DNA of 63,836 nucleotides, counting the filler, from Sluysia triapertura (lineage: Eukaryota), in NCBI GenBank assembly GCA_046118255.1. It is 5 parts of 5 records of this genome, joined end to end, with 100 filler letters (N's around TTAATTAATTAA, not from the genome) between each part and the next. Parts side by side here need not be neighbours in the genome. Positions count along the whole stretch, not along the records: positions 38,203 to 52,127 come from JBJNIA010014090.1; 4 more parts are not named here. One strand, given 5' to 3'. The notes below the pieces were generated by a model, which was given only the letters and a program-made list of their open reading frames with translations, made no database searches and was not told the origin of the DNA. A program made the translations under genes and the position numbers. Of this stretch, positions 8,418 to 52,227 are shown in pieces (position 1 is the stretch's first letter; each line of letters starts with the position of its first letter).

Positions 8418-8420
8418 CTA

Positions 8421-8760
8421 CCCCTGCCGAGAACTTATTTCTATGTTTTCCTTGTTTATCTCCTCTATTAAGACTTTCCATCCTCCCTTCTGAATAATCC
8501 ATTGCGATAAATATTTATTTATTAACACATCTGCTTTTTGCAGGCGTTTTCTTGATATACGAATGTTCTATCATGTATCTGTATAGCCAAATGTGTCATT
8601 ATATTTATTATTTTACTATTCGTAATACCATCCATTATAGTTCGTCTAATTATCATTCCGTTTTCATAGTCTAGTATTGTATTGTGATGTAAAATTCTAA
8701 AAGATCCCCTTTTATTTGTGGTATTTTACCTTTAATTAGTTCTGCTAGCTGTATCTCCGT
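8421..8760 (-). pseudogene. Candidate Bcl-2-fold domain of a retroelement (copy 1)
   Basis: Manual translation across frameshifts gives IPQIKGDLLEF (BH3-like), IIRRTIMDGITNSKIINIM (BH1-like) and KYLSQWIIQKGGWKVL (BH2-like). In frame with the glycoprotein ORF, separated by a single TAG at 8418-8420. Confidence 0.6.
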
Positions 8761-9792: not shown

Positions 9793-11019
9793 TGACTATT
9801 GACCCCATCCTGGAGATTGAGATCCTCACTACTCTCAAATACTGCAAGCGCTCATCGCCAGGTCAGAACCGAATAACATTCGAGAATTTACAGGATGTCG
9901 ATCCCACTGGTAAACAGAATCCTACTTTTTAACAGAATTCTGGTCAACCAAAAGGTCCCGACTGTTTGGAAGAACTACAACACTTTACTGATAATCAAAC
10001 CCAATAAATATGACTCGGCACAAAACGTCGCTTCATGGAGATCTATAACTATAGTGGACTGCAGCTATAGAGTCTTTGCCAAGATCTTGAATGACCGCTT
10101 ACTGGCATAGGTCAAAAGTGGCAACCTCATCAGTACACATCAATCAGTACTCTCCAATCAGATGGATGCACCGAGCACAACTTTCTACTCTACTCACTTA
10201 GAGAAATAGTGGAGTCGATAAATCACAGGAAATCGCGCAAAATTGAATTACACATTGTCTTCCTCGACTTGGCGAATGCATTTGGTTCGGTGCCACACAA
10301 TCTGATATGGAATACTCTCAAGAATGGGACTCCAACAGCAAACCCTGAATATCCTGAAGGACCTATACCAAGACAGCAGTACCACCTACAAATGCAATGG
10401 CATTATAACCAAACCTGTACCGATCAAGTATGGAGTGAAAGAAGGCTGTTCATTGTCCATGACACTATTCTGTCTGGCAATAGACTATCTGTTCCGGCAG
10501 TTCACGTATGATGACTGCATCAAAATAACTGATGACCTGAAATTTCCTCAATACCTGGCATATGCTGACGACAGCCCTAATTAGTACTACCTTCGACAGA
10601 CTACAACAGATCGTCAACGGAGTTGTCCAAAATGCGAAATCAGCCAACCTCATATTCCGGCATACGAAATGCTTCTACTACAACAACATCCCCGACTCGA
10701 GATATTCACTACTAATCGAAAATACTCCGATTCCCCGTGTCACCAGTGAAAACCAAACTCTATATCTTGGCGTTCTATTTGGTGACTATAAGCGGCAAAG
10801 TATTAATGATTTATTAAACGAGAACATCAAATACACCGAACTGATATCGAAGTCAAAACTGGGTGCCCGGAATAAGTTCCTCATGTACAGGAACTTTGTG
10901 CAATCCAGACTTCCGTTCCATCTAAGGAACCTGAACATCAACGTACAATCCCTCAGCAACCGCCATCCTAAAAGCACACCCCAATCAGTGAGGTACGACG
11001 AAAAGATACAAGAACTGCT
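9793..11019 (+). mobile_element. Non-LTR retrotransposon RT fragment, R2/NeSL-Utopia-like (frameshifted, cut by scaffold end)
   Basis: RT motifs WRSITIVDCSYRVFAKIL, FLDLANAFGSVPH, GVKEGCSLS, LAYADD and YLGV spread over overlapping ORFs. GC content is higher than the flanks. Confidence 0.9.
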
Positions 11020-11119
11020 NNNNNNNNNNNNNNNNNNNNNNNNNNNNNNNNNNNNNNNNNNNNTTAATTAATTAANNNNNNNNNNNNNNNNNNNNNNNNN
11101 NNNNNNNNNNNNNNNNNNN
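11020..11119. other. Artificial scaffold-joining spacer
   Basis: N44-TTAATTAATTAA-N44 (six-frame stop linker). Confidence 0.97.
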
Positions 11120-16050: not shown

Positions 16051-16590
16051 AAACTGCCTGCTGATCCTGGTCCTGGTACAGAAGAAATCCAGGAGTGGTT
16101 TAATTAAGTACCAGGTTTTTTTTAGGTAAGAGAAACTTAAAAGTGATCGCTCGGTTGTGTGGAAAAACAAAATGTCAAAACTTTATTGAAAGAGAACACA
16201 AATGTCGTGGTAGTTCATATAAAATACAACCTAATATTCCGGGAAAATATTGGTAATATTATAATGATAAAAAATGTAATATTAAATAAAGCTACCTGTT
16301 TGCATGAATCAGATTTTTATACTAATTTAACAGAACGTAATAAAAATTGTATTTTAGAATCAGAAGTAATCATATTTAATATCAATGTCGGATAAGTCTG
16401 TATGCTAAATCAAAATGTAATATGTTTCGAAATCATTTTTTATCCACTTTGTACAAAAAGTGGCAAGGCTCTTCGACGATATTTTTATAATTCTAATGAT
16501 CACACTTGCGAATTTTTTTATAGTGGAGTGGGTGATTTCGGAAACCGATTTAGTATTTTTATGAGTGCAAAGAATTATGTGAAAATTATG
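16051..16590 (+). pseudogene. Kunitz/BPTI multi-domain protease-inhibitor remnant
   Basis: KLPADPGPGTEEIQEWF (16051-16101) and KALRRYFYNSNDHTCEFFYSGVGDFGNRF (~16464-16550). Several Cys lost; stops and frameshifts present. Confidence 0.65.
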
Positions 16591-16924
16591 ATATTAAAGT
16601 ACACAATTATAAAAGGGAACTAAAAAGTTTAATTCACAAAGTTTCACATAAAGACAAAAATAAATGCCCTTTGTCAGTTGAAAATATTTGTACAAATGAT
16701 GAAGCTTATATTTGGATATATAATAATGATTGTATTATTTTATTAATTTATTGCTTCAAAATTAAAAAATTTTTAAAAATTAAATAGACGAGGGTTTCAC
16801 AAAGCTAGCACTTTACATTCAAGTTTCATAATGAATCAAACTATAAAGAGAATACTGTGGTTGTTAGTGTTGTGATAGATGATATATAGTCATATTTTAC
16901 GAATAATTTTTGAGATAAATTAAC

Positions 16925-17572: not shown

Positions 17573-18685
17573 TCAGGAATAAAAGATGATGAAGTATCTT
17601 GAATTGATAAACATCGTTTGTTGGTTGTTTACAATTTGTTTTAACCGATTCATAAGACGTAAGTACACATGTAATACTAACTGCGTATTTTTGTCAATTA
17701 GAATAGTCTTTCTCATAAACGTTGCAACTAAATTGTTGTATTCCTTTCTATGAAAGAAAATCATGCATGTTCTGTCGACAGTAACATATCTCTCTAAAGC
17801 ATCTATGTTCAATTTTGACTTCTCACTTGTTTTTAAGCTGTTATCGGGGTTCGAAATTAAAATCTTAGAATCTGATACGCATAAAAATGACATATGATTT
17901 AGAATAACAAAATATAAATATTTCTGATTAACTTTAAATTGTGGATATATACTTCTTTCATATCTATTCATAACCACAGGATAGTTAGTTCCTGCAACAT
18001 AGTTAACATTTGGCATCTTTTTGAAAGGATGGAAATTTCGAATAAATTCTTTACCGGCTACAGGTAAAGAAAAATGCACTACAGTTGTGGTTGGATTTAT
18101 TACAACGATATTTAAAGCTGAATTACTGAAACATTCTAAATTACTTGAAGATTCTAACGGCAATTCGTAAACCAAAGAATACAAAATTTCTTCTAAATTA
18201 GATTTTATATACTTAATTCTCTTATCTTCAACCACTTTACAAGGATCTTTGGTATATTTCATTATAAAACTACATGAGAAGTTATCTAATTTTGTAGGCA
18301 TTAATTTTACGGACAGACTAAATTTTCTCCATTTTTTACACTGAAAACATCGACACCAAATAAACAACAATTTATTAGAAATGAATTCATTAACCGAACT
18401 GTTATGATGTGACTTGACAATCCATTCCTTTTGCAAATTCATTATTTCTTGATACTGTATATCATACTTAAAGGATGTTGATATTTTATTCATACGAATA
18501 TTACAAATATGTTTAACATTTAAAATATGATACCATTTCGGATTTGAATCAGAACATTCTTTGATAGTATGTAAGAAACACATTGGAAAGTTTGGACAAC
18601 ATTTGTTTTCACTACATTGATGAACTAATTTCTTTTTCATGAGTTCTACACCTTTAAAATTGAAATTTCTAAGTAAATTATCCAT
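17573..18685 (-). CDS. KDM1B: Lysine-specific demethylase 1B (LSD2)-like N-terminal part: zinc finger, zf-CW and start of SWIRM; no catalytic domain
   Basis: 370-aa ORF. CCPNFPMCF...KWYHILNVKHICN (LSD2 zinc finger), WCRCFQCKKWRK...FSC...DPCKVVEDKR (zf-CW), FHPF...VMNRYERSIYPQF...LYFVILNHM (SWIRM start). May be a pseudogene. Confidence 0.75.
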   Translation of the reverse strand: MDNLLRNFNFKGVELMKKKLVHQCSENKCCPNFPMCFLHTIKECSDSNPKWYHILNVKHICNIRMNKISTSFKYDIQYQEIMNLQKEWIVKSHHNSSVNEFISNKLLFIWCRCFQCKKWRKFSLSVKLMPTKLDNFSCSFIMKYTKDPCKVVEDKRIKYIKSNLEEILYSLVYELPLESSSNLECFSNSALNIVVINPTTTVVHFSLPVAGKEFIRNFHPFKKMPNVNYVAGTNYPVVMNRYERSIYPQFKVNQKYLYFVILNHMSFLCVSDSKILISNPDNSLKTSEKSKLNIDALERYVTVDRTCMIFFHRKEYNNLVATFMRKTILIDKNTQLVLHVYLRLMNRLKQIVNNQQTMFINSRYFIIFYS

Positions 18686-19470
18686 GATATCATTAACTAA
18701 AAAATTTTAAGTGTATAGACCAAAATTTTTAATTGTGAATTGTATATTGATTTAATTTTCTCATTCTATTTTTGATTGCCCAATCAGAGTATTAAGAAAT
18801 AAGTTTGCAAAGAATATTGAGGTCATTATAACAATTATGCAAATTGTGGTGTGTTTGTAACAAATAACTCTCATTGTGTAATGGAATTTTATGTTTAACA
18901 TGACATTGTTAATATTTTTTTAAAAATATTGCAATACAATTTGTAATCTATAACTTATGATAGGTAATCTGTAATATTCTAGCTTTAGTTTTATGCTCTA
19001 AATGGTGATTTATAGATTTCTGGTTTATAATTTTGACTTATTATTTACGATTTATGATTCATGATTTATGTGGGGTGACCAACATTAATTTCAAAATCTT
19101 ATGATCATTTATATTTATTTTATAGTTGATTTTGAATTTTCTTTTATGGTGTCACTTATAAATTACATTTGGTGCATTTGTTTTGTTAAATATGTGATAT
19201 AAAATTTCATAAATTATTAAAATTGCAAATATTTATTATTATGTTATTAACTAGATAATTTAAGATAATTTTGGTGTATTTTAAATTGTTTCACAATTAT
19301 GTTACCTAATAAACTCATCATAATGTTAATGCTTGTTATTTTGATTTATATGATAAATTTGACGTCTGTTAATTTGTATCAAATATTTTACTAAAATAAT
19401 ATGTTTTAACAAAAATTAACATTGAATCGGTTTTTGTGTTAAATATTAATATATTGTTATTTATACATAA

Positions 19471-19531: not shown

Positions 19532-19681
19532 ATTAATATTCGTTATTAATGTATTAATGTTTATTGTGCTCATATAAGTACTCAAAAGCGTTAAATAATT
19601 TTATTTAAAACACAAAAGAATTTTTTTAAATATCATAAGGATAAATTGCAAATTTTAGTTTTTTATTATTATTATTGTTAT

Positions 19682-19835
19682 TATTGGGGTAAAAAGGCCA
19701 AAAGTGCCATTTGGTAAAATTGACTATAATAAAGTAGAATCGTTAGACGGGGCTGATAGCTCAGTGGTAGAGCATCGACTGCGCAGACAGGTCCCGGGTT
19801 CGATCTCCGGTCAGTCCATTTAACGAAGTCTAACA
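19682..19835 (+). repeat. tRNA-derived repeat, copy B (best preserved); pseudo-tRNA core 19750-19818, Cys/Ala-like
   Basis: Acceptor stem GGGCTGA/TCAGTCC, D arm GCTC-AGTGGTA-GAGC (A box), T arm CCGGG-TTCGATC-TCCGG (B box). The anticodon arm does not fold. Flanked by GTTAGAC...GTCTAAC and followed by an N gap. Confidence 0.85.
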
Positions 19836-24897: not shown

Positions 24898-24997
24898 NNN
24901 NNNNNNNNNNNNNNNNNNNNNNNNNNNNNNNNNNNNNNNNNTTAATTAATTAANNNNNNNNNNNNNNNNNNNNNNNNNNNNNNNNNNNNNNNNNNNN
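24898..24997. other. Artificial scaffold-joining spacer
   Basis: N44-TTAATTAATTAA-N44. Confidence 0.97.
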
Positions 24998-32100: not shown

Positions 32101-34039
32101 TTAAAATAAAAGTAATTGACAGAGAAAAATAACCACAATAATAACAATAATAATCATAATAATAATAATAAAAACTATCTGAAATGAACTTAGAATAATT
32201 AAAGAACAAGAAATTGTTTCTATTAATTCATAAAAATAAGTGACACACTAATTAGTGAAAGAGATATTAAGTATTAGTGAAAAAAATTTACAGAGCATTA
32301 TCAATAAAAACTAAATTAAAAAAATTTAATATTTTATCTACTAATTAACTATATGTATTATATTTTTAGGAAAAACTAATATGAACTTTTCACTTAAAGA
32401 AACAAAAAAAATATTATCCACAACGTAATTCATCATTTTATTTTATTATATAAAAAAATTAATTCATCTTTAATTTTAATTCTATTCAAAATAAAATGAG
32501 CACTTGAATATGGAGGCATTATAAAATCAGTAAATGCCATATAAATATGATATTTTGTAATAAAATGTTAACTAAGACATGAGAGAAAATCAGTTTAGTG
32601 AACTATTGAAATTCCAGATAATGAAAATTAGTCACAAAGAAATAAGACGTAAAATTTATTGAAGAACTCAATAATAATTCAGTCGATACACATGCTACTG
32701 TGTTAAGATAATAAATTGAGTCATATAATTTTGTCTTACATTTATGACATTAAATTTATTAATATTAATAAATTATTATTAATAAATATTAATAAAATTA
32801 TGAATATTAATAAAATAAATTAATGCTAATTATTACATGATGATAATTGATATTAATCTAAAAGATCAAAAATTCTTTAGTAATACAAGATACCAACAGA
32901 CTAAAATGGTTAATGAATTGACTGTTACGTCGAAAATCAGATATCTTAAAGTTCACAATTCGTATCTAATGAAAAGACAAGGTGAATGAATCATATTCAA
33001 CTATATTTAACCAGTCTTCATGAGTAAAAGAATTTGGTTATTTATTTGTTAAAGTTCCAATACTGGAAGTAAATAATCTGCTAGCAGATCTGCGCGATTT
33101 GTTCAAAGGTAATGTTAATCTAAAGTTACAATAAATTGACATTCAAAACGATATCATAAAATTATTCAATAAAAAGTTCATTCCAATCCTGCTATTTATT
33201 ACCAGACTCTACAAGTTAGGTTTCAGAATATTTTAGTACTTATTATATGCTAGATAAATAACTAGCTACTGCAAAGTTATTACTTTAAATTTCATGGTAT
33301 TTCTAATGTAAACTATCTCTTTTGTTATTATTTTGATATTAAAGGGACCGATCTTTCTCCTAAAAAATTGAAATATAAAGTGTTGTGCCCAGTTTATTGC
33401 TCTAATAAGAGAAACTCTAAATTTTATAAATTAGATAATTTAATAAAGACGATAATTATACGATAATAAGTGCAAATTATCACCACTGAGAATATCACCT
33501 TAAATCAATCAGTGTTGATTCTACTTTGTGTCAGCAATGTGATCATAAATATAAGATTAATTCTGACCATTTCATAATTTATGATTATTATAATTTCGTT
33601 GCAATNNNNNNNNNNNNNNNNNNNNNNNNNNNNNNNNNNNNNNNNNNNNNNNNNNNNNNNNNNNNNNNNNNNNNNNNNNNNNNNNNNNNNNNNNNNNNNN
33701 NNNNNNNNNNNNNNNNNNNNNNNNNNNNNNNNNNNNNNNNNNNNNNNTCTGGTTAAAACAAAAATACATGTTTTTTAAAGTACAATTTTTATTATAATTC
33801 ATATGTGATACCCATTTAAATTTTAAATGTTTAATCACAATTATGGTACAAATACAAAAGTGAACTAGCGTACATCACAAAGAAAATACCTGTAAGAAAG
33901 AAGGAAAATTAATAGATAAATACCTAATAAAGTGACTAAGACAGAGAAGGTCGAAAAAAAATATTAAAAATAATTCACATAAGAGAAAAGCAAATATACT
34001 AATAATTAGTTAAAATTTTCAAAGGATATTAAACTAAAT

Positions 34040-36400
34040 ATTGAGGATACTGGCTGACATGAGGACACTGTAAAATGTATCCAAATGCCCAGGAATATTA
34101 CCACTTCATCCCGAGACATTACATGAAAAGATTTGAATCTGGCTTGAACTACCTAGGTTACACGAACCGTAGTATCCAACTGGTGATACAGAGGTCAAGG
34201 CAATAACGATCAACAAACCAGTAAAAGAAAGAAAGAACAGGCACAGAAGAAAATCTCGCCAAAAGATGCCTGAATCCAAACTCAAAGCCAGAGAGACACT
34301 TGGAACTCAAACTGACGACCTGCCTGAGCAACCCATATTGAAGGATCAGCTTGAACCTCAGAAGAGTGCCAGGAAGAGAACCCATAGGACCAAGCCCTGA
34401 AATATCCTAAGGAAAATGTAGATAGTGGTAGTGGTTAAGATACTGGGACTCAGTCCTAATAAACCACCAGCCAAAAAACAGGGAATTAGGGACTCCCTCA
34501 AAATTAGGGACTCCTGTCCCTCAAAAAATGTAACAGGAGTACTTCTCCCGGCAACACCGGTCGTTCAGAAAAGCCCTGTTACAGCAAAAGCTGGGGTCAA
34601 CTCACCTAACCTAGAAGAATATTGTGATCTATTTAGCAAATCGGTCAGAGCCTCTTTACCGCATTGTCTAATGACCTTTTTGCCTCGGCGAAGCTGGCTA
34701 CACCCGCTCTTGCTCAGTCGATTGACACAATATTCTCTGAGTTGTCGGTAACAACTCTTGAAATCTTCCAATTACTACCAACTACTGTTGGACAAGGATA
34801 GCAGATTCATCTGTGCTTAGGATAATGAGTGCCCATCGACCTTTCGAATAAAACACGATACCGACGGAGATAACATATCTAAGCACATGCGTAACATTCA
34901 TGATGCAGTGATGACGTACTATAAGCTGAACGTCATATATTCCTGTGGTAAAATCATTAAATGCACGAGTTGACTGAGCAACACGTGGACCACAATCCAC
35001 ACTGTATCGGACCTTGAATAACCCAAGTGTGACAGGACCCAGTAATGGAAAAGTCAAGGAATGCAATGAAGAGGATATCAGTTATTCAATTGTGGACTCT
35101 TCTACGATAAAACGCAACCACTGCCCCAAGACGTACAAATACATCGTAAAAAATAATGATACGGTGTGACGTCATCTCAGAAATGCAAATGACTTCACGA
35201 AGTCTCTCCTGGTTAAGAGCATATGTGGGCCAATGTTTAACAAAATCAGTGCTCTGAATGTCCATCTTGTGAAAATGATGATATCGATTCATCAGAATGA
35301 CTATTTAGGAAGGCAATAGAAGCTTTCTTTAGGGCGTGCGTCACAGAGAGTGACAATGCGATTCTGCACACTGAACTATTTAGTTATGCCACAAGGCGGA
35401 CTGCCAAGCCTTGCTCAATAACATTCCGCTGTATAAATTGATCAAGTTCCAGCACTTTTATTGGGTCATTAACATGTGTGATGTTAATTGTCAACAATGT
35501 TCGGAAACAGTATCTGTTTATTGACCCAAAATTATAAAGGGATTCATGTTACTAGCATTGCATCCACAAAACAAACCTCTTACGCCTAGCGATGTAGTTT
35601 TTCCGAAGCAAGTGGTCCAACGGATTGTGGACCACAAATCTGCAACATCGCTCTTCAATGCAAGCGATTTACATCATCTGGAGGACTGGAATTTGACTCG
35701 GAATCCCGATACCAATTCGTGGAGCCGGATATAATGTGGACCCGACCACTCCATGCAACCTAATAAATGGGCTGGTACCGATGCAAAGGCCTAAACAACC
35801 ACACCCAACAGTGACATGAATCAGAGCGATTACAGACGGGGCAAATATAGCCAAATGAAGCATTCAACATGTTTTGTGACCCGATATACCAGGGAAGGAT
35901 CAGGATATACACAATATCTTGAACAAATGCAATAATGCCCGGGAGTCACAGTAAGAAGACTTTAGATGATATTAATCTTAATAGAATAAACATGTCGGAC
36001 ATGGCCAAAGCCTTCCAACTGATAACCAGTTCGAGAACTCCAGATGAGACTGACGGATCAGCATTATTGTGGCCCACTATAACAGTGTGCAAGTGCCACA
36101 ATTTGACCCATTGTTGATGTCCCAATTACCATATTTCTCGGACATCATTATAGAAAAGATGGTGATATCGCAGGAAGTCCGTCTTGTTAAGGATGTGTGT
36201 CCGAATTCAACATCTGGACAAAACAAGATTACAATAAATGATGTTCGAAGAATGGACCCGAAAGACGAATTTATCGCCTCTCTTTTCAACAGAATTCTTG
36301 AAACAGAGTAAATAACACGCTGTTGGAAATTCACCACAATCCTGCTCATAAAACCAGGAAAGGTAGACTAAGGTCGGAAACCATCCAATTGGTGACCTAT
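34040..36400 (+). mobile_element. Degenerate 5' portion of an R2/NeSL-type non-LTR retrotransposon
   Basis: GC-richer block with C2H2 finger remnants (CA*DNECPSTF...KHMRNIH; ICGPMFNKISALNVHL). Ends in MDPKDEFIASLFNRILETE*ITRCWKFTTILLIKPGK, homologous to LFNRILVNQKVPTVWKNYNTLLIIKPNK of the 9.8-kb LINE. Confidence 0.75.
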
Positions 36401-38102: not shown

Positions 38103-38202
38103 NNNNNNNNNNNNNNNNNNNNNNNNNNNNNNNNNNNNNNNNNNNNTTAATTAATTAANNNNNNNNNNNNNNNNNNNNNNNNNNNNNNNNNNNNNNNNNN
38201 NN
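38103..38202. other. Artificial scaffold-joining spacer
   Basis: N44-TTAATTAATTAA-N44. Confidence 0.97.
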
Positions 38203-39571
38203 TGGTAATTTTTTATAATATACAATTTTAAATAAATTTTATAATATTTTTATAAATTTAAAAATTAAAAATTTTTTTTTAAAAAATACAAATAAAAATT
38301 TATAAAATTATGTACATTCTTACATTTTAATTAATATAAACTTAAACAATGAAGTTTAGTAAGTTACCTAATTAAACGATAACTACAAAAATAAAATTTC
38401 TTGATTTTAATGAAAGATTTTGCTCTGCAACATTAAATAATTGCTATGAACCACATTCAAATAAAACTAACGAATTCTTTAAGATTAAAATTTCTTCTTT
38501 CCTGAAAAATGGTTTTTTCAAAATTAGGAGTTTCAACTGTATTATATGTCAGTTTATATAATAAAATTATATTGACCTTGATATGATTTCATTAAAACAA
38601 AATTAAATTTTATTTTTAGTTTTAAAAATTATTTTTTTAATTTAGCAATTTTATTTAACCAATAATTTAAAATCAAAATAACTTACAGAAAATTAATTCC
38701 AAATTAATAATTCACATAAGTAAATATAAAGTAATCTAAGTTCATTAATTCACATAAATAAAATCAATGATTTTTGTCTTTAAACATACACATAATAAAA
38801 CTAATATATGTACTTTGATACTGACGATAGTTATTAAATCCAATATAAATAACTGATTTTACGACATTGTTTTACGAATTTTTTATTTTATATATTTCTT
38901 ACGGATATTTACTTAATTTTAGTACAACTAACAAATTGTTAGATACAACTTTTGAACCACTGATTTTTTGGCAAATGTCATTTAAATCTATTTGATTAAT
39001 TCAAGTTTAAATTTACACTTAAACTCCTTTTAAATTAATACAGTAATTTAATAAATTACACTAATTTCACAAGTAAAATAAATTTGTTATATTAAGTGTT
39101 TACTTTTTATATTTATACGAGTATTCATTATATTTTCTTATTGATTTATTCGTAATAATGTTTGTTATAACTATATATTTGAAAGTAATTTATTGCAGGT
39201 TCAGCAAAAATTATAGAAGTTATTGATAAGTTGAAATACTAATTCGTAAAAGAAATAGCATCCAATAAGAAGCTCGAAAACCTTAACAAAACTCATTTAA
39301 ATAAGCTCAACTAATCTACATATATCTACTATAGACGGACCCGTAAATTCTAATTTTATTTTTATACTTATTACTTATAAACATTACATTATTCTTCCAT
39401 TCTTAATTTTCATTTATCTTTTACGTAAACTTATATTTTACTTATAAAAAGAAATTCTTTCTTTTAAATAAGAAGAAATTATAAAATGCACTTTAACTTT
39501 CAAAAAATGGGAAAATTCTTTAAAAAAATAGTTTTTTAATTTTCTTAGAAATGTGGCATTTATTATTATAG

Positions 39572-39716
39572 TGTTAGATTTCGTAAAATGGACTGACCGG
39601 GACCTTCGCTGAGCAGTTCGAATGCTCTACCACTGATCTATCAGCCCTGTCTAACAATTTTATATTTCTATAGTCCATTATATTACATGGCACTTTAGGC
39701 CTTCTTACCCCAACAA
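39572..39716 (-). repeat. tRNA-derived repeat, copy C
   Basis: Reverse complement TTGGGGTAAGAAGGCCTAAAGTGCCAT...TTGTTAGACAGGGCTGATAGATCAGTGGTAGAGCATTCGAACTGC...GGTCCCGGTCAGTCCA...TCTAACA. The B box is deleted between the two CCGG. Confidence 0.85.
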
Positions 39717-41009
39717 TAGTAAAATAAAAGTAACTTCTTGCTCTTCATAGAAGGTAAATAACACAAGTTATTAGTATTTGTTACTGTATACATGCGAATG
39801 TGTCTTTATCTGATTGGTTAACCGTGTAGTAATTATACTCAAAAAATTAATTATCTGAAATTATGGATATATTACTATTGTGCTAGTCATACAGTCCAAA
39901 AACTTCACTAAAAAGAAAAAAAGAAAGATGGCACTAAGTTAAAAAAACCTTCACACTATATGATTTGCCAAAATGGGTACGAGACACGGAAACCAAAAGA
40001 TACGCCAAATACATATTAACACTTTTATATCATAATTTTCATATTTTCGGCAACGTTTTTTTATTTTTTTTCAAATTCTCCCATTTTTGAAAATCCTTCG
40101 CCATTTTGATTTTTAATAATTTATTACTAATATAATTTCTGTTGAATTTTTGTGAATCTTGTGAGTAAAAAGTTTTTAATAACATTATGACATCTTTATA
40201 ACTTAATGAATGAAAAGTGCATATAATTTTAATAGATAAGGTAAACGTATTTTTACGAAATGATTCGGGCTTGGGTATGAAATTGAATAGACAAGTTATG
40301 ATGAGCCTGGTCTAAGACATTCTTTTGACTATTGAACAAATAACTTAAACTGAAATATTTTCTACTGAAAACTTAACATAAAATAAATCAATCTTCCTCC
40401 AAATAGCTACTATATAATACATTAATCATCGATTTAGTCAATACTAAATATTATATTAAACGCATTCTCAACATAATGATTAATTTATTACTACTCATGC
40501 ATATGAAAAAAGAGTTGAGTTTCAATACAAATTAAAAATAAAATTGCAATGTTCACACTGCAGCCTTTTTTGACAACTAAGTAACTATATAAATACACTT
40601 AAAATCAGTACATTGTTAAAAGCCGAAAGTCCTTTTTTATTCATCTCAGTTATAATTATTCAGCAATAGTTAACTGATGTAAAAGAAAACTAACTGCAAT
40701 ATAGAAACTACTGGTACTAAAACGTTCATGCTTCATTGCTAAGAAATAAGTAATTCAGTACCATATATTACAAATGTTTGTTATCTTAAATTCATATACA
40801 CCACTCCGATGTGTATATTATGTTATTAATGACATTAATTTAACACATTTATAAACAACTTATGATCTGACAATATTATAAGTATGGCGCCAGCAAAAAA
40901 AACTTCTTCAATACATTTAATTTTAAAATATTTAATTTAGTACCATAATTTCAGTTTTTAATTTTACATTATACCTTTGTTAAATTATTTTCTAAAGTAA
41001 TTTTACTCA

Positions 41010-41472
41010 ATGAAATTATATTATACATTTTTATTAATTATTTGTTTGTATCATCAGTTAATAATAATTAATTGCTGTTTTGAATTATTGAATAAAAAAT
41101 GGTCGCCATTATCACTCAGTGAACGAATTGAACGATCTGAAATAGTATTAATTGGAAAAGTAATACAGCGATTTTTGGTTAAAAATAAAAGATGGTATTC
41201 TGTTGAATTTCAGTTGGTAGATGTAGTAAAAGGCATTGGAAGTAGTCAGACAGCTGATGTCAAATTAATTAATAAGAAACTAAATCCAACTGTTCTTATT
41301 GATGGTTTTGGTAGTACCATTGATTGTTTATCAGATGTAAAACCCGGATATGTTTATATTATATTTGGTATTGTTAAAGTTGATGGTAATATTTGGGCTC
41401 ACTATTTAACAAGTTTCGGTGCTGCTGAATTATTAACTAATTCTAATTATAACGTCGTACTCAATACTTTGG
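41010..41472 (+). CDS. Secreted NtA-domain (agrin N-terminal-like) protein, first coding exon
   Basis: Signal peptide MKLYYTFLLIICLY, then LSERIERSEIVLIGKV...YSVEFQLVDVVKG...VLIDGFGSTIDCLSDVKPGYVYIIF, matching the NtA pattern (LERREEEANVVLTGTV...YLKG...VVISGFGDPLICDNQV). Likely phase-1 donor G/GT at 41472/41473. Confidence 0.8.
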
Positions 41473-41951
41473 GTTGGTTTATTTAATTTATATTTAATAC
41501 TAAAATTGAATATTTAAAATTTTGGATATTAATGTATTATATCAATTTATATTGACCTAGTATCTAAAATAAGTAAAATATCTAATATACATCATAATAT
41601 TTCTGAAAGAGAAAGAACTTTGCCTTTTAAATATTTCATAAATATTTAATGCAATTAATGTTTCCTTCCATGTTCATTTCCGAATCTATACAGTAGCTTA
41701 TATTTCGTGCTTTTTAGTTAATTTCTAATATTTCTATTATTAACTTCGATTCGTTTATTTTAGTATTGTGGCTACTTTTATTACTGACAATTATAAATTC
41801 TGATTTTTCCTCATTAATTTTCAAACCATCTTATCAATTGAGTTACCAGTTATTCTGTTATATGAATAGTATATTCTATAATATATCTACATACATCACC
41901 ATATATGTGGTATTTATAATCTATTATACTTGATTCGATTTTACTTCATTA

Positions 41952-42056
41952 ACTGGACTGACCGGGACTCGAACCCAAACTTCTTACCTTCGATGCTCTG
42001 ACCACTAAGCTCTCAGCCCCGCCTAACAATTTTAATTTATTGTGGTCAATTTTACT
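41952..42056 (-). repeat. tRNA-derived repeat, copy D
   Basis: Reverse complement AAAATTGACCACAAT...TTGTTAGGCGGGGCTGAGAGCTTAGTGGTCAGAGCATCGA...GGGTTCGAGTCCCGGTCAGTCCA. Confidence 0.8.
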
Positions 42057-42070
42057 ATTATTACTCTAAA

Positions 42071-42071
<1 letters not shown>

Positions 42072-42111
<40 letters not shown>
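42072..42111. repeat. (TA)n microsatellite
   Basis: Perfect TA run. Confidence 0.95.
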
Positions 42112-42114
<3 letters not shown>

Positions 42115-43679
42115 ATCCTTGAGGAAATCTATTCTTCACATATTCATCATTTGACTTCACATAACTCAATAAAAATGTTGTTTTCTTTCTAAACAAAACA
42201 CAATTATGATTTGAAACTCTAAAAATATTACAGAATTTATTCTTAAAATAGCTGTTTCTGTTAAGTGATCATTATAAAAATGTGTTTAGACAGAAACTTT
42301 GACAATCGTTGTAAAAGTGCTTTTTCAATCACTTTTGAAAGCTAAGTTTCATGATAATTGTGTCCAATTTATAATCAGTACCAACAAGAACAACAACAAC
42401 AATAATAATATATTACCGCGATACATAAGTGTTATCACATTTTGAAAAAAATTTATTTTAAGCACATAAATTTCAGCCAGAATTGTATTTAAAATGTATG
42501 TGAATTTCTCGAACAAATATAATTAATAAATTTTGTTTTAATTATATTTCTTATATGATTTTAAGGAAAAATTTGATAACTTTGAAAAACCTATGCAACC
42601 AATGGAATCACATTATTAAATAGATTTTGATGCCAATAAATAACATTGTAGAAAGCAGAATAATAGCTGGATATGAGCAAACTAGGGCATCAGGGATTTA
42701 TTTATCTCCTACATTAATTTTTAAGCATAAAACTATACCCAGACTATGCCATGGAAACGATTACATGATACTATGTTGGAATTTTGGATTGATGAATGTT
42801 TCTGTTCTTTTAATTTACTGTCTTTATTATTACCTGGCAGATGACAAAGCTTCTTCGATTACCGTAAAAGAATTACTTCAAAGTCCGGAAAGTTCAGATG
42901 TAGCTAACTGGAGTTTAATCGTGAAATGATGTAAAATAATAATTTTTAAATATGCAAAAATATTTTACATGTATGGACTAGTAAGTGATAGTAAATCATC
43001 TTAATGAAGCAATTGTTTTATTCAGAATATAATAAATAATTTAAAGTTTGCTCAAAGATAAAACTGATGTTTCTGATTTAGTTTAGGTTTAGTGTTTTTA
43101 AATTACAAGTAAAGACAATAAAATTTCTTTTTGTAAATATATTTATAAAATACATCAAACCTTCTACATAATGCTTGGTTTAATAGTAAAGGTTCAATTA
43201 TTAACTTTACTTTTTTTGCTAAAAGTTTATTATAAGATTTCTCAATAATGCTTTTTGTACAGTTTTTTTTGCATTTATTTCTATGTGTTTATTCTGTTTA
43301 AATGTGTTATATCATAAAAACATTGCATTTTTTTATTATTTTCAAGATATTCAAGATTTTTCAATACGAATAATCATAAACAAGCACAATTATTTTAAAA
43401 TATACTTTTGTTTTTATTGGTAGCCAATTTATAATATCCTCTTTGTACTTGAAACATTATTCTCATCGATTGATTCAGTTCTTGTTGTAAATTTTGCATT
43501 TTTTGAATACTCTGCATTAAGTTTTACTATATCTTTATTGATAAATTACAACAAACATCAATATTATGTACAAAGGTGTTATAAAATTGTTCATAACTCT
43601 AATAATAATATTTAAAAAAATTATGTGATTTTTCAATAATTAAATAATAATTATTTTAATTGATTAAATAATGTAAATG

Positions 43680-44290
43680 AAACTATATGTCCTGCCCATA
43701 CACATTTAGTTGGTTTAATTTTTAATCTTGCTACTTCAAGCCTTTTAAGTGTATTATCTATATCTACTACATGAGTATCAAAATCTTTTGAAAATATAAT
43801 TATATCATCAAGGTAGACCAGATAATACGAAATTCAATCATCTTTGAAATATAGCCGGTGCGCCTGTTAATCCAAATGGCATTTGTTCACATTCATATAA
43901 TTCATTTCCGCATGAAAATGCTGTTTTCTCGGCTATCCTTCTCGGCTATTTCAGTTTGCCAGTAACCACTTTGTAGATCCAATGTTGTTAAATATTTGGA
44001 ATTTCCTAATTTATCTAACATTTCATCAATTCTTGGTAATAGAAATACGTATTTTCTTGTAATTTTATTTAATTCTCTAAAATCGATGCAAAATCTCATA
44101 GTACCATCTTTTTTCTTAACTAATAATACTGGTGATGAGAATGGAGAAAAGCTTGGTCTAATTATTCCAGCCTTTTTCATTGTATCTATTTGATCTTTCA
44201 TTTCTTGTTGGTTGCATAGTGGAATTCTGTAAGGCTTCTTTCTAATTACTTTATCTTCTATTAATGGAATTTCATGTTTTATTATGATGG
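43680..44290 (-). pseudogene. pol: Ty3/Gypsy reverse transcriptase
   Basis: KPYRIP, GIIRPSFSPFSSPVLLVKKKDGTMRFCIDFRELNK, LDLQSGYWQ, MPFGL, VYLDDIIIFS, LKIKPTKC. Frameshifted. Confidence 0.95.
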
Positions 44291-44519
44291 AATCTCCAAT
44301 ATCTATTTATTTCTTGCAATTTCCCAGGGATATCTATAGATAACTTTATATGATATCTCTTTTTGATGTTTAGTTAGATTCTTATTCTTTATTTGTATTT
44401 CTTCATAGTCTTCTTCATCTTCGATATTTCTTTGTAGTTTTGTGTTTTTATTTCTTGGCGTATCATCTGATATCATGTTTATTGGTGTTTGTAATTTATA
44501 ATTAACTATTTCTCCCAAT

Positions 44520-45110
44520 TTTGTACCTGCATAAAGCCATTTGTTTTCATCTATGTAATTTATAATTCTTATTGGTATATTTCCTTCGTTGGTATATATT
44601 TCCTACATATTGAATTCCTATATTTAATTTCTCTTGATATTTTTTTGAGGCTATAAACATTATTGGGCCATTTCTTAAACTGTTTGTTTTTCCTGGTATT
44701 ATGCATTATGTTCTTTTTAACAACCAACGTGGTTCTTCTAATATAACATCATCTTCATCAATTGGTCTATCTGTATATGTATCCATTAATTTTGCTTTGC
44801 TAAAATCTAATGAGACTCCTTTTAATTGGAATAATACATCCATGACTAATATCATATCCTCTGGACATTTTCTCATTACCCTACATTTTATTTCAATCTT
44901 GTTTTGTCCGATTTCACATAATATTTTTAATACTCCTAGTATTTCGATTTCATCTCCAGTTATTCCTGTTAGATATGAATGTTGTTTGGCTAAATTATTC
45001 AATTCTTTAGTAGTTAATAATGTTTCACTTATTAATGAAGCAACAGCTCCTGTATCAACTAATGCAGATAACATTCTTCCATTAACTCTCATATCCACCA
45101 TAGGTCTTCG
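44520..45110 (-). pseudogene. Retroviral-type aspartic protease plus Gypsy PR-RT spacer
   Basis: RPMVDMRVNGRMLSALVDTGAVASLIS...GITG...DMILVMDVL, followed by GNIPIRIINY...LYAGTKLGEI. Confidence 0.92.
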
Positions 45111-45289
45111 TGCACTATTATAATTATTATTAGCACATATCATATAAACTAGATTTCTTGGTGGTGGTTGATATAGACTTTGTTTTTCTTCAATAACTGG
45201 TTCAATATTTATTGTTTGTAATGCGATATCTTCAGTTTGTTTTTTCTCTTTCTTTAAAGCATTTAATTGAGCATGTGCATGATGATGTA

Positions 45290-47092
45290 ACAAGAACTTA
45301 GCTAAAAATGGAAAACAACCGATTATTAATTTCCATGTAAAACCTGATATTTTATAAATACCTACAACTGAAAATATTTGAGAGATTATAAGTGCTATGA
45401 CTTTAATTAATACATATATTCCTATTAAACCTGAAAAAGCTTGCCCTATAACTAAGAAATTTCCCCAAATTTATTTTAAATATTATGTGCTGCTAATAGT
45501 AATTCAAAATTTATCTTTCCATCTTTTTCTACTATTGCTTTATAAACTATATCAGTAAGTACCTTAGATCTTTTAATTGGGAATAAGATTTCATGCCAGG
45601 CCGCTTGAATGTCTTCATTTGAATAGATTCCTGATCTTGGAATGTTTTTTGTACCTGAAAATTTCAGTTTTGTTTTCACCTCTGTTAATCCTATAATTTC
45701 TGGAGTTTTGACTTGACTCCTATGTGGTAAAGATATCCAAAGATTATCGTCGATTTTATATTATGGAGCCATCACATTAGAGCAGTGTAGTGTTTTAGGT
45801 TTCACTTTATTTGTTGGCATAATTATTCTTGTAACTGGTTCTAAATAAGTATTTTGATTTTTATATATATTACTGGTAATTCGTTGGTGCATTTGCTTTC
45901 TTGTCTTATTGGTACTTCTAATTTTTTACACTTGTATGTATATAGAACTTCACCCATTAATCTACCAAATACTCCTTCTTCTAGTGGAAGTAACGGTGCT
46001 ACTAAGTCTGGGTTTGTTATTGCTACAGCTAATTTAGTTCTTAATATTTCTTTATTAAGAAATCTCTAGCTATAATGGCTTGATAAACTTTTTCTAATGA
46101 CATAAGTCCTAAGTGATAATAAAAGTCAATTTTGTTATTAAAGTAAGTGTTTAATTGTAGATTCTTTGTGTCTATTCCTTTTTTAGCCTGAAGTATCGTC
46201 TTTTCTGATAAATATATTCCTTGGTAGTTAGTTTCCGTGATTTATTGTCCACATCTAATTACTAATTTCTTTGATACGAATATTAATCCATCTTCTACTT
46301 TGTTAGCCATTAAAATTGTCGGAGTTTCAATTTCATGAAGTCTTTTTCTTTCAGTTATATCTAAATTATCCTTATAAATTTGTTTTTTATTTATTTCTTC
46401 TACTGCTAACTCATCTTCATTTTGATACATAAATCCTGAAATTAAATTAAACTTAATTTGTTTTAAGAATATTAACAGACACTGGTATTTTTCCAATTCG
46501 TATATTAATATAGATTCGCCAGTATCACAACTTCTTTGGTCTGGACATCATAGTACCTTTATCTAAATTGAAACTTCCATTAAAAGATTTCAGACTTACT
46601 ACGTATGTTTCTTGAGTTACAACATTATGATAAATTTTTCCTTCATATTCTATTGATCCTCTTTCACAAGTACCGTCAATTAATACGTTACCAGATTTTC
46701 TAATATTATAAATTATTTTCTCATTATTTTTAATTCTTAAGAATATATCCCTTGTTTAAGCTTATGTATCCAGTTATTCGGTGATATTTTAAAAGGTTTT
46801 AATATATTCGATATATTAATAATTGAAGAGTGACTATGATGTCCACAATACCATACTACTACAGATCTTTTAAGCATTCTTTTACTAAAGTCGTAACCAA
46901 ATTTCCTTCTTGGTACACATTTAATATTTTAATATCTTTTATTTTGACTCTATTTGTTCTAGATTCCGGACAGTCTTCGGTATCTAATAAAGAAAACTTT
47001 CTTCCAATTTGGGGTTGGTTACAATCAAAAGCTTTTATAGCATTAGTTTTATTAATTCCGATTAATGCAAATAAAACAATTATAAATAACAT
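45290..47092 (-). pseudogene. env: Chuvirus-like envelope glycoprotein (copy 2, essentially full length, frameshifted)
   Basis: Signal MLFIIVLFALIG, AFDC...SLLDTEDC, WYCGHHSHSS, DGTCERG, CGQ, NPDLVAPLLPLEEGVFGRLMGEVLYTYKC...CTNELPV, LEPVTRII...HCSNVMAP, GIYSNEDIQAAWHEILFP, and membrane region IWGNFLVIGQAFSGLIGIYVLIKVIALII...GFTWKLIIGCF. This is the motif series of Chuviridae-type G proteins. Confidence 0.88.
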
Positions 47093-47208
47093 ATTATTTA
47101 TTGAAGTTCCAAATTGTGGAAATGATCCATTTGAATTTCCTTTATTATTATTATTAGTCGGGATATTGTATTAAGTGGTTCATTTAAATATTCTTTCCTT
47201 CTTTTTCT

Positions 47209-47560
47209 TTATCCTTTTTTTATATTTTCCCATCCTCCGAATTGTTCAATTAAAGTACCTAATTTTTTATCAGTAAAGTTTATAACCTTATCTATTTTTT
47301 ATTTAGTTAACAGTGTCGCTTTATTACATTGGAATATTATGTAAGCCATTACTATCTTAAGTCTATATTAAGCATAATCTGTTTATTTATTATCTTAATT
47401 AATGCAGCTTTGTATTCCTTTAATTCAGGTAATAATGTTTTATACTTATCAAAGTTAGAAAATTTATTAGACAGTAGAGCGTCAATTATAGTTTTAGTAC
47501 TTAAAGTCTCTTCTATATTCTTATGGATAATTTTAGTCAAATCAGCAGGTTTTCTATGTA
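47209..47560 (-). pseudogene. Candidate Bcl-2-fold domain (copy 2)
   Basis: End of ORF 47352-47924 plus frameshifted continuation: IINKQIMLNIDL/KIVMAYIIFQC...KIDKVINFTDKKLGTLIEQFGGWENI. BH2-like GGW at 47230-47238. Confidence 0.55.
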
Positions 47561-48720
47561 TTGGGGTTGATAATATTGTCTCGTTATCATTATTCTTTTT
47601 AGGCATACCTGGTCTTCTTTTAAAAGTATTTGTTTCTTTATCTTCAGTTTCAATATGTGGATTTTTATTTAAATCTATTATATAGTCGGGTTTGCCTTCA
47701 GTATAATCATCATTCTCATTTGTAATATCTATAATTTTACTTTCATTATGATTATATATAACTTTATTAATATTATTTTCCTTATAATTATCTTCCATTA
47801 ATTCTTCTAGTAGTGTACGTGGGGTTTTATCTAAGTCAACATCATTGTCATCATTTATTAGTTCATCCAATTTTCTTAAATCATCAGAAGGCTTAGTATA
47901 TGCCATTATAACTGCGGAAGTCATTGATGTTTCCTCATGGTTTATTTATTTTATCATTAGTGGCTATTATTATTGATTCAATCTCTTCTGTGGCACTGTA
48001 ATAGGTATCTTCCTCTTCTATTTCCATTTCTTCCGCTTGTATTTCTTCATCATCCGTTTCTTTAATGTTATATATATTTTCTGTATCTGTTTCTACTTCT
48101 TGATCATCACTTAGTTCTGAGTTATTTTGTTGATTTTCTTCTTGCTTTAATTCTTCTTCTGTTGAACTTGATTCTTCTGTTGGAATTGATTCTGTATTTG
48201 ATTCTTTTTCTATTTCATCATTACTTTCAACTGACTTATTTAATTCTAGTTTCTTCGTCTTTCTTTCCCATTTGTCAATTATTTCTTGAATCCCTTTTCT
48301 TTTATCTTCATTTGATATCACTTTCTTTATCTCCTTTATTTGCTCAATGCTTTCTTCCAAAGGTTGGTCTAATAATTTTCGAATTCTAACCTGAATTGTT
48401 GAATTGTTTTTTTTCTCGTTGTTCCCTTCTTTGTTTATCCTTTTGAAATTCCAGGTATCTGTCATTCATGTAACTCATAAAGATTTCTTGTTTGTTCTTA
48501 AATCTTTTCTTGTCACAATCCAATCCAGTAATATAGAATTCCCGTATCATTGCATTCTTTTCTTCATCTGAAATTAACTTAAGATATTTATCATCTTCAT
48601 CACTACTCATTTCTCTTCTTCTTGGTTGTCTTCTAATTCTATTTCTTTCTCTTTTATACTGATGTTCTTCATATTCGCATTCATTTTCGTAATCTTTTTA
48701 GCTTCTATAATTACAATTTA
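47561..48720 (-). pseudogene. Acidic, low-complexity linker of the retroelement polyprotein
   Basis: Consecutive E/D/K/N-rich ORFs (48386-48610, 47935-48465, 47352-47924) offset by frameshifts, lying between the Gag knuckle and the Bcl-2-like region. Confidence 0.7.
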
Positions 48721-48759
48721 CCTGTCCTTTATTATTCTTATTATTATTATCATTAAACC

Positions 48760-49830
48760 TTACTTTCCTATTCGGGCTTTGGTATCGTCCCTTACCTTAT
48801 TAAAATCCTGAGTAAATACATTTTGTCTTAACTTCCTACAATCTCTTGAACAATGCCCCTTTTTATTACAGTTGTCACAGATTAATTTTCCATCACTATT
48901 AGTTTGAGTCTTATTATTTTCATATTTTGTTGGACTCTTGCTTCTATTCCTATTAAAATTGGAGCTTTGTGGTCATCTCGGTGCTAGTCTTTGTTCATAA
49001 TTAGAGGCACCATAGTTACTTGTTCTATTATTTTGAAATCCTCTATTATTATTTCTTCTATAATTATAATTATTTGAGTTACCCCTGTAATTGTTTGAAC
49101 TGCTTCTGTAATTATTTGAGTTACTTATCCAATTATTTGAATTTCCTCTAAAATTATGTCTGAAATTAATTGAATTATAATTGCCTCTACGTGGGCTATT
49201 ATATCGTCATAATTGTAATTACTGTCGTTATATTCTTCATAATTAAATTTATTGTTATCATAATTATTCGTATTTCTTGTTAATCTTGGGCTTTTATCTT
49301 CTTTTTCCTCATTATCACTTATATAATCAATATCATTCTTATTCTTATTCTTAATTTAGCGTTTTATACTTCTTAGTTTCTTAATTACTTCTTAAAAGGG
49401 TTTTCCTTCTATTAAGGTAACATAAGTTATTAATTCAGGTCGTAATCCAGTTTTTAATTTATCTATTAGTGTTATTTCCGTTTTATCTCAGGAATTTTGG
49501 CTCTAGCAACAAGGCTTTTAAGAGCGCAAGCATATTCATATGCAGATTCATTAGGTTTTTGTATTCTAGTATTGAGCATTTTAGCATAATATTTAACCAT
49601 ATCATCAAGAGCAATTTGTTCTGTATATGTATTAACAAATTCATTACATGTTTGTTTATCATTATTGCTTATTTCTTTATATGTCTGCATAGCCACTCTA
49701 GTTAGATAATTTTGGATCCGTTATATTTTTTCGGCTTCATTCCAGCCATTTTCTTCTGCTACGGTTTCATATTCAAATCGCAGAGATCTTCCTTTGCTCC
49801 GTCAAATTTTTTCATTTCAGGTAAAAACAT
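48760..49830 (-). pseudogene. gag: Gag (capsid-like domain, R/G/N-rich segment, CCHC zinc knuckle)
   Basis: KKFDGAKED../FEYETVAEENGWNE, RIQKPNESAYEYACALKSL (MHR-like), CDNCNKKGHCSRDC (C-X2-C-X4-H-X4-C) at ~48838-48879. Confidence 0.9.
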
Positions 49831-50255
49831 TATTGTGCCATATATTCCTTAAATTCATTAGGTAAAGCCATATAATACCTTAATTTTGATCTGTAATCTT
49901 CGTATAATACTATTTGCTTATTTATTTTTCTTTAACTTACTTAATCTATTAATAATCAGCATAGGGAGTAATAATTTTGCTTAAATTTATCTTATACTTA
50001 ACGAAATCTTGATACAATTATTCTAAAAATGCTTAAATCTTAGTATTAACTCTCAAATTCTTCTTTAATTCAATATTAATCCTTGAATTCTTCTGAAATA
50101 CTTAATTCTTATATCAATTCTATTCCAAAAATCTTCTTAATTACTTAATCTTTAAATTTATTCTTTTTAAAAATCTTTTATCTTTAATACTTGTCCTTAA
50201 ATTCTTCTAAAAATCTTATATCTTATGTTCATTTATATTATTGTATCAATACTGG

Positions 50256-50273
50256 TCCTCACTCTGGGCACCA
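50256..50273 (-). promoter_or_regulatory. Primer-binding site, most similar to the elongator tRNA-Met 3' end
   Basis: TGGTGCCCAGAGTGAGGA about 430 nt upstream of gag. 16/18 to the complement of the vertebrate elongator tRNA-Met 3' end as recalled (TGGTGCCCCGTGTGAGGA). Confidence 0.7.
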
Positions 50274-51250
50274 GTTTATTCTATGTAGAAATGTTTACTT
50301 AGAATGAAATAAAAGCTTAAAGTGAGTTCACGAACGTACTGGGATTACCAGCTAGGGCCTGCCATTGGATTTCTTAAAAGAAAGTCTCAAAAAATTTAAT
50401 GTGCACTAAAGGACTCTTAACTGTGTATTAAAAAATGCTTAGTCTTCTGGAGGCAATTAAATTTTAAAAGAATTTAACAATAATCAAATTTACAAACAGA
50501 TTTTACGTCGACTCCTTTACACGGAATCTTTAAAGATGATTTTACGTAGCTAGAAGTTAATTCAAAACATAAAACAAAACGATAGATTTTATAGTTAAAT
50601 CTATATAATTCGTAATAAAAGTCTGAAAAAGTTCACGTAATTTATTCTAAGAAAAGCGTTACAATAATATATTGATAGTAAAATATATTTTTCGTAAATT
50701 AACTATTTAAGTTAATTTCTTGCTAATAGATAATAAAAAACAATAATTTACGCATGGATCTATGAAAAGATACAATAATTATATATAGAAGTTTAAGTTG
50801 ATTTTACCTTTGATACTTTACAGTATCTCCCTTAAAAATAATTAAACTAACGTGATCAAGATAATAACAATCTTTTAATCGTCTAATTGTCTTAATTCGC
50901 GAATGCGTATTCCACCATAAATTTACAATTGTACAAATGAAATTGTGAATTTATTTCTACAATTTGCTTTTTTCTATAGTATCAATTCGGCCTTGACCGA
51001 ATTGAAACAAAATTAATAATTTTATTAAATCATTAAAATCTTTAAAATTAAGGTATTTCTGATCACGTTAATTTAACTTATAATTTAAATTTCAATTAAA
51101 AATTTCTTTTAAAAATAAAATTGCAAATTAAAAAATTTCTTTAATAAAATTCGAAAATTCCAAATAAAATTCAAAAATTCCAAGTAAAATTCTATAAAAG
51201 TCAATAAAATTCAGTAATTCAATAAATATACCACAAATTACAAATGATCA
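50274..51250 (-). repeat. Probable 5' LTR region (outer boundary unknown)
   Basis: Immediately upstream of the PBS. Candidate end ...CTACA at 50284, or ...AAACT overlapping the PBS. No second LTR in the window to confirm. Confidence 0.45.
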
Positions 51251-52127
51251 ATAAATATTCGCTAAATAAAAATCAATAGATGATTGTGTATAATCAATTC
51301 ATAATCACTATAAATGTATATGTGTATTTGGTGTATTAATTATCATTTTTTGTATAAACAAAGATTTTTCGGATGAAAAATATAACATGAGTTTTGACCT
51401 CGTTGATGTCTTTATTAATGAAAATAACTAAAGAATTACATATTACGTATGAGGACAATTACGAATAAGTAGTGTACTAGTACTACCAATTAAATGTAAT
51501 GTATTGAACGAAATAGCTAAAACAATAAACAAATGTTTAATGAAACGCGCGCATCAATTACTGTTACACGGAGGAAAGAAAAATTTCTGTACAGTCCCTG
51601 CTACAAGAAATATGAAATTAAGCAAACTCCATTCCATATATTCAATATAAAAAGTATGGGATGTAAAAATAGTAATAAAATGACGTACAACAGATATAAG
51701 AGTATCAAAAAATTGTACGGGTATCTCTAATTTATATTAATATAATTAATTAATAATAAACTTTAATTTCATAAAATCATGTTATAAACGCCCTCAAACA
51801 ATTCGATGTTATGTTAAACTCCATCCTAACATAAAAATTAAATATCAATACATTCAAATGTTCATTATTTTCTGGCTCCGCGTACACAACGTCACACCTT
51901 TAAAAACGATTTACCTTAACTATTTTTACCAATTCCAGAAATAATGTCACTATCATCAATAGACAGTTAATTAATTAAACTATTACTATTACTTTGTATA
52001 TGTTTATTTATACTACATGCTGCTGGGTTCTTTTTTATCCTAAAGACTTGCCTACAGCAAAATAATTAATATTTATGAGTCCGTTTACAGTATACGACTT
52101 ACCTATGGCGTACCTGTAAAAATCACG

Positions 52128-52227
52128 NNNNNNNNNNNNNNNNNNNNNNNNNNNNNNNNNNNNNNNNNNNNTTAATTAATTAANNNNNNNNNNNNNNNNN
52201 NNNNNNNNNNNNNNNNNNNNNNNNNNN
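52128..52227. other. Artificial scaffold-joining spacer
   Basis: N44-TTAATTAATTAA-N44. Confidence 0.97.

Follow-up and report, generated by a model that had tools for sequence, protein, structure and literature searches.

Does a retroelement locus with a viral envelope glycoprotein between its gag and pol regions represent one coherent element, and is that layout new? The question is raised by positions 43680-50273 of a 63,836-nucleotide stretch of Sluysia triapertura DNA (assembly GCA_046118255.1; hereafter the window). We translated the minus strand of this locus in three frames and scanned the 19 stop-free pieces with Pfam. Along the minus strand, a primer-binding-site (PBS)-like sequence is followed by Gag remnants, a region termed X, a glycoprotein (G), a protease (PR) and a Ty3/gypsy reverse transcriptase (RT). 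This domain order and its coordinates, proposed in an earlier note on this DNA, were confirmed by Pfam, tblastn and translation, with Gag and X as the weaker parts. We conclude, with a probability of roughly 0.88, that 43680-50273 is the decayed remnant of one copy, truncated at its 3' end, from a multicopy Ty3/gypsy (Metaviridae-like) family of the known GAG-ENV-POL type in an AT-rich animal genome. Many stops and frameshifts are spread across the whole copy, RT included, and the copy ends inside RT at about 43680. It makes nothing functional and is dead.

At the joint between G and PR, positions 44709-45470 (minus strand) form one stop-free frame of 254 codons that carries both the G anchor and the retropepsin, in agreement with the uninterrupted frame that had been noted from 45470 onwards. 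The C-terminus of PF24664 (Monjiviricetes fusion protein) matched residues 1-86 of this frame (E 9e-11, 40.8 bits against a cut-off of 27), and retropepsin occupied residues 121-217 (RVP, E 4e-8). The membrane anchor and tail helix of G thus lie at 45246-45470 (PF24664 positions 540-622), in the same frame as the protease with its DTG motif at 44820-45110, both on the minus strand. A structural model of the frame showed two long helices (residues 2-42 and 45-85), a flexible linker and a retropepsin, and the protease model matched Ddi1 and retroviral proteases with an E value of 1e-7. Hydropathy of the G tail gave one peak at residues 4-43 (maximum 2.45), and the second helix did not exceed 1.47, a profile consistent with one membrane pass and a cytosolic protease.

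The ectodomain of G (45479-47038, minus strand), of Monjiviricetes/chuvirus-like type, is broken into pieces in three frames. PF24664 matched six of the nine stop-free pieces within 47170-44709, and these were colinear with the family model (3-75, 128-192, 277-337, 340-404, 435-517 and 540-622 of 653 positions); three of the six passed the cut-off alone. The G pieces were also colinear with relatives by tblastn, at 25-81% per piece. A signal-peptide-like hydrophobic stretch precedes the ectodomain at 47039-47092 (minus strand), and the same place is hydrophobic in relatives. For the fold, the G of a relative, P0010, was modelled (pLDDT 72.7); it is 36-60% identical to the window G per aligned piece. 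All 36 PDB matches listed for this model were herpesvirus glycoprotein B (gB), the best with an E value of 1e-13 and a TM score of about 0.3, a low value of the kind that an elongated monomer is expected to give. The fold comparison proposed in the earlier note therefore gave a match to gB, made on the relative, and the PF24664 matches on the window together with this modelled fold assign the window envelope to a predicted gB (class III) type. A second related G fragment was found at 8090-8543 (minus strand), perhaps reaching to about 9200, with a pre-G region, a signal and the G N-terminus. It is cut off near 8090, gave tblastn E values down to 1e-14 and showed no blastn similarity to the main copy.

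Downstream of the protease, a spacer at 44306-44705 (minus strand) is kept in relatives, as shown by tblastn to P0114, P0004, P0019 and P0116. It had no Pfam match, and an atlas look-up of a relative's spacer returned no dUTPase family. The broken RT follows at 43675-44306 (minus strand), where RVT_1 was matched at 43905-44306 and 43654-43833 and tblastn alignments ended at 43675. No tblastn match was found past 43675, and RNase H (RH) and integrase (IN) are absent from the window. The best solved relative of the RT was Ty3 RT (E 1.5e-25), all others having E values of 9e-11 or weaker, and its named neighbours were Ty3/gypsy proteins. The window RT is thus classified by sequence as Ty3/gypsy, closest to Ty3 RT. 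The order PR-RT is seen in the window itself, and PR-RT-RH-IN is complete in the nearest relatives.

An exhaustive search with the 254-residue G-PR frame gave 111 matches, which with three cluster members made 114 proteins; P-numbers are labels of the database proteins matched. A word-based search with the same frame among longer proteins found none in 2142 candidates, and none of 24 pattern matches in viral contigs was confirmed. The G tail was followed by PR in 21 of the 114 proteins (18 clusters after three same-cluster pairs were merged), without exception in this order and at a distance of 40-300 residues; the spacing in the window is 46. The remaining proteins had the tail only (21), the protease only (71) or neither (1), and most of the tail-only proteins, possibly fragments, stop within 100 residues. 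By Pfam, a full G precedes PR-RT-RH-IN in P0004, P0010, P0039, P0098, P0114 and P0116, and a zinc knuckle or Gag domain stands before G in one frame in P0002, P0010, P0013, P0017 and P0098; P0010 reads zinc knuckle-G-PR-RT-RH-IN in 2627 residues. In NCBI this animal-type polyprotein is assigned to a Flavobacteriaceae bin, and it probably comes from a misbinned eukaryotic contig. Because 21 of 114 proteins share the joint, several of them in one frame from Gag or G to integrase, the G-PR fusion is, judging by these alignments, a family trait and not an artefact. The intact single-frame relatives and the gB-type fold also support the single polyprotein that had been suggested for the ancestor.

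These relatives also bear on a different origin of the joint, in which a G gene or another element was inserted into an ordinary gag-pol gypsy element, or joined to it by chimeric assembly, and the shared frame arose by chance. The heavily broken copy, the X region without a match, the gaps elsewhere in the scaffold and the lack of a listed contig over the joint would fit such an origin. However, the same joint recurs in 21 proteins of independent source, and relatives align to the window by tblastn in order over G, PR, spacer and RT. Furthermore, self-comparison of the window found no LTR (long terminal repeat) pair and no internal duplication, and there is no N gap within 38203-52127; a second LTR is not seen because the copy is cut. 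The N-run joints of the window (11020-11119, 24898-24997, 38103-38202 and 52128-52227) all lie outside the element. A nested or chimeric origin is largely refuted for the G-PR joint, and we regard it as highly improbable. Each N-run joint is built as two N runs flanking a 12-base linker with stops in all frames.

Contigs of four runs (X1-X4) were mapped onto 42500-52100, with 25,570 pieces in X1. Summed depth in X1 was 7e3-3e5 in every bin of 43463-50524 and 39-84 in the flank below 43463; over G (1.3-2.8e5) it was similar to that over RT (2.1-2.7e5) and about a thousandfold higher than in the flank, although summed depth is not a copy number and X1 may be the window's source. Most X1 pieces were 90-99% alike to the window, which makes the window copy a diverged representative of a large family in which X is also present. 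The element is thus multicopy in its host, as shown by the X1 depth of about 1000-fold that of the flank and by the second G fragment at 8090-8543. No joint skipping cleanly from Gag to PR was present among the 15 contig joints shown of 327. Two joints from flank to element were disregarded, as they had only 21 letters on one side. Another repeat of very high depth lies at 51809-52100, just before the N joint at 52128.

The 5' end of the element is less well preserved. A PBS-like site starting with TGG lies at 50256-50273 (minus strand), with no tRNA assigned; by eye, its first 12 bases differ at two positions from the Met-CAU and from the Phe/His tRNAs tabulated in supplement 1 of PMC13524379, and the window contains no tRNA gene for assigning it. 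Directly before this site, 50274-50524 (minus strand) is a candidate 3' part of the 5' LTR whose outer limit is not fixed. It had no self-match, so no partner LTR exists in the window. Summed X1 depth was 3e4 at 50204-50524, about 1e3 at 50525-51166 and 39-84 at 42500-43462. A broken, capsid-like Gag remnant at 49475-49774 (minus strand) matched residues 48-144 of P0013 by tblastn (32% identity, E 1.7e-8), the aligned stretch 49774-49481 corresponding to the P0013 N-terminus, and the stop-free pieces gave no Pfam match to Gag capsid. The nucleocapsid region (48763-49206, minus strand) has Asn/Arg-rich repeats, including a 21-base tandem array at 49067-49157 with comparable composition in P0013 (by eye), and one CCHC knuckle at 48832-48879 that was sub-threshold in Pfam (zf-CCHC, E 0.006). 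Region X (about 47200-48700, minus strand) consists of acidic, low-complexity coding remnants with open stretches of 103, 176 and 197 codons and has the same high repeat depth as the rest of the element. Ahead of the internal signal, near 47230, stands a GGW motif that was found by eye also near 8470 and in two relatives and may resemble the Bcl-2 BH2 motif.

Gag could have had its own frame, ended by a stop or a programmed frameshift before X or G, so that only G-Pol formed one polyprotein, which would allow Gag to be made in excess over Pol. In the window copy the frame indeed shifts directly downstream of the zinc knuckle and a second time within X, and the G-Pol relatives P0004, P0114, P0116 and P0039 have no CCHC knuckle in the called protein. 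However, the five relatives with a knuckle or Gag domain named above carry knuckle and G in one frame, and the frame changes of the window copy are spread over its whole length including RT, as decay would give. We therefore consider a separate Gag frame unlikely.

The reading of the locus as a copy of a family with G inside one long polyprotein also has several points against it. A single Gag-to-Pol frame, for which the earlier note proposed a test as far as integrase, cannot be read in the window copy through Gag, X and G (stops and frame changes); several relatives keep one frame to integrase that starts in Gag or in G. Region X had no convincing Pfam family and matched no relative. P0060 and P0102, two of the proteins with a G tail but no PR, resemble stand-alone G genes. 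Membrane topology was judged by hydropathy only. Among contigs, no piece bridging the G tail and PR was present in the 32 shown of about 31,000, and runs X2-X4 contained the same variants at 0.2-0.5% of the X1 depth, so that they may be carry-over or not independent. In addition, the RT tree is short and was built by a quick method from the unbroken 118-residue RT piece (118 columns), with 68 of 134 RT matches as rows (the best 30, all G-bearing ones and every third other). Seven of the 13 rows in the window's RT group have no G in their own record; these look like fragments or like frames beginning at PR or downstream of it, and G-less family members may therefore exist.

Within this tree, the window RT paired with the fragment P0119 (70% identity, support 98) inside the 13-row group (support 93), which also contains five G-PR-RT proteins. 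The G-bearing P0037 (Caenorhabditis nigoni), P0039 and P0098 fell outside this group, and the RT of P0037 was far from that of the window (31% identity, long branch). The position of these G-bearing RTs fits a statement in print that the GAG-ENV-POL layout is not monophyletic.

With regard to novelty, the earlier note had set out env as normally a separate ORF 3' of pol. This is true in general, with exceptions in PMC6431247 and PMC13524379. In the planarian Burro/GYPSM1 giant gypsy elements, one polyprotein was reported to hold env in frame after gag and ahead of pol (Arkhipova and Yushenova 2019, PMC6431247). Errantiviruses of gB-type GAG-ENV-POL organisation were described from Platyhelminthes, Nematoda and Bryozoa by Chary and Hayashi (eLife 2026, PMC13524379), who tabulate nine flatworm elements, six of them from Schmidtea mediterranea (1-215 copies). 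The layout, though real, is already known from flatworms, nematodes and bryozoans, and the novelty that had been considered for it fails; the window copy adds one more, dead member. The elements of PMC13524379 share with the window a Ty3/gypsy Pol, a gB-type env between gag and pol and multiple copies. In the available passages of that paper, the words 'fused', 'in-frame' and 'polyprotein' do not occur and a shared env/pol frame is not mentioned, whereas the window joint is in frame. This comparison is one of descriptions, and the figures and the external sequence archive of that paper may contain the window's family.

Two further groups are related in part. Mosquito BEL/Pao elements bear a chuvirus G (Dezordi et al. 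2020, as cited in PMC13524379 and PMC12440569) and thus have the same glycoprotein class, but their RT is BEL/Pao and that of the window is Ty3/gypsy. Troyka (PMC12440569) has no bearing on the comparison. For non-canonical nematode endogenous retroviruses (ERVs), env and pol are described in flipped order (Sacco et al. 2022, as cited in PMC13524379). The Caenorhabditis proteins P0037 and P0057 likewise have G before PR, and the RT of P0037 is distant from the window's. These ERVs reportedly have one continuous gag-env-pro-pol frame.

The closest comparison is with Burro. According to PMC6431247, Burro shares with the window an env in frame with pol, an accessory or X region before env and an extra domain or spacer between PR and RT. 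The Burro env matches mononegavirus fusion glycoproteins and is also likened to gypsy/baculovirus Env, with no gB class stated there; passages on Burro in PMC8532177 concern expression only. The window element might then be a true Burro member that lost, or never showed, the accessory domains. The same in-frame env position and a very high copy number agree with this, and the BCL2-like motif before env and the dUTPase-like PR-RT domain described in PMC6431247 would have counterparts in the GGW motif and the conserved spacer of the window. However, the Burro frame is 4,873-5,140 residues long and encodes BIR, MATH, ankyrin, Smc and BCL2-like domains, whereas the window element is compact, with about 5.1 kb or 1,700 codons from Gag to the end of PR, and has none of these by Pfam; the three long X pieces had no match to BIR, MATH, ankyrin or Smc at E values up to 1. 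It also has one knuckle instead of two or three, and the BCL2 and dUTPase identities are putative. The window thus has the in-frame env of Burro and lacks its giant frame and accessory domains, and membership in that family seems rather doubtful. In P0002, P0114 and P0067, the stretch before G appeared ubiquitin-like by eye, with no Pfam match, and recalls the Ubi2/SUMO-like domain of Burro.

A working element of the GAG-ENV-POL family would encode one long frame, Gag-X-signal-G-anchor-PR-spacer-RT-RH-IN. The internal signal would send G into the endoplasmic reticulum, signal peptidase would free the G N-terminus, and Gag would stay cytosolic. After a single membrane pass the polyprotein would be cytosolic again, and there the protease could release itself and Pol from the G tail. 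Trimerisation of G could assist dimerisation of the tethered proteases and could draw capsid assembly to the G-rich membrane, and budding at G-bearing membranes would give enveloped particles moving between host cells. Infectivity and signal-peptidase processing are what we infer for such an element. G might instead be no longer a fusogen for cell-to-cell spread and serve as a membrane anchor for intracellular assembly. Because G is fused to Pol, each polyprotein can supply only one copy of it, and particle or infection data are found neither for the window nor in the literature passages available; however, divergent relatives retain the complete ectodomain, cysteines included, which would be needless for an anchor alone. 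An anchor-only role is thus improbable compared with that of an envelope fusogen.

The relatives further showed two traits. A hydrophobic segment after integrase was found in eight of nine RT-group proteins with integrase (six of the nine with at least two) as opposed to three of 61 others, when P0117 was assigned to the group on the basis of its cluster and P0113 was counted among the others though clustered with P0114; G is present in P0039, one of the three positives outside the group. Downstream of integrase, tails of 450-1650 residues that contain signal-like and transmembrane segments were present in P0010, P0019, P0114, P0121, P0122, P0124, P0004, P0116 and P0039. They had no Pfam name and were mostly not alignable to each other, and an atlas look-up gave weak fibronectin-III-like leads (0.75-0.80). 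In addition, at least two protease domains occurred in nine of the 21 G-PR proteins, with two to seven per polyprotein in P0002, P0003/P0114, P0004, P0008, P0014/P0116, P0017/P0118 and P0032; the maximum of seven was in P0116. Integrase is followed by one protease domain in P0004 and by two in P0116; P0032 lacks G but contains a zinc knuckle together with five protease matches. Tentatively, the window's family may belong to a gypsy clade with a several-pass polyprotein, two envelope proteins and a protease often multiplied two- to sevenfold. The two envelope proteins would then be, somewhat speculatively, a gB-type fusogen before PR and an unnamed type I membrane protein after integrase. Herpesvirus gB needs an attachment or fusion-trigger partner, and by analogy the post-integrase protein is a possible partner of this kind for the gB-type fusogen. 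The window copy ends before integrase and has one protease, and so shows neither trait. Tandem proteases with a post-integrase membrane tail were not found in the literature, which is weak evidence given that the Burro, NERV and Repbase descriptions were covered partly, and this side result may be new. The intact relatives with these traits are better material than the window for studying the threading and cutting of such a polyprotein, its Gag/Env/Pol balance and any movement of particles between cells.

Outside the element, the window contains an agrin NtA-like exon at 41001-41486 (plus strand; E 3e-4, below the cut-off), a Kunitz domain at 16396-16620 (plus strand; E 5e-5) and a 377-codon frame with a weak CW zinc finger at 17576-18706 (minus strand), and these host coding pieces indicate an animal. 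A GC-rich block of 2 kb at 34001-36000 had no Pfam match. A broken non-LTR-type RT remnant with higher GC content and weak RVT_1 similarity lies at 9877-11070 (plus strand). Finally, a short dispersed repeat occurs at 19679-19775, 39622-39718 and 42001-42057 in both orientations, with copies 75-84% alike, and is perhaps the end of a short interspersed element (SINE) or a miniature inverted-repeat transposable element (MITE).

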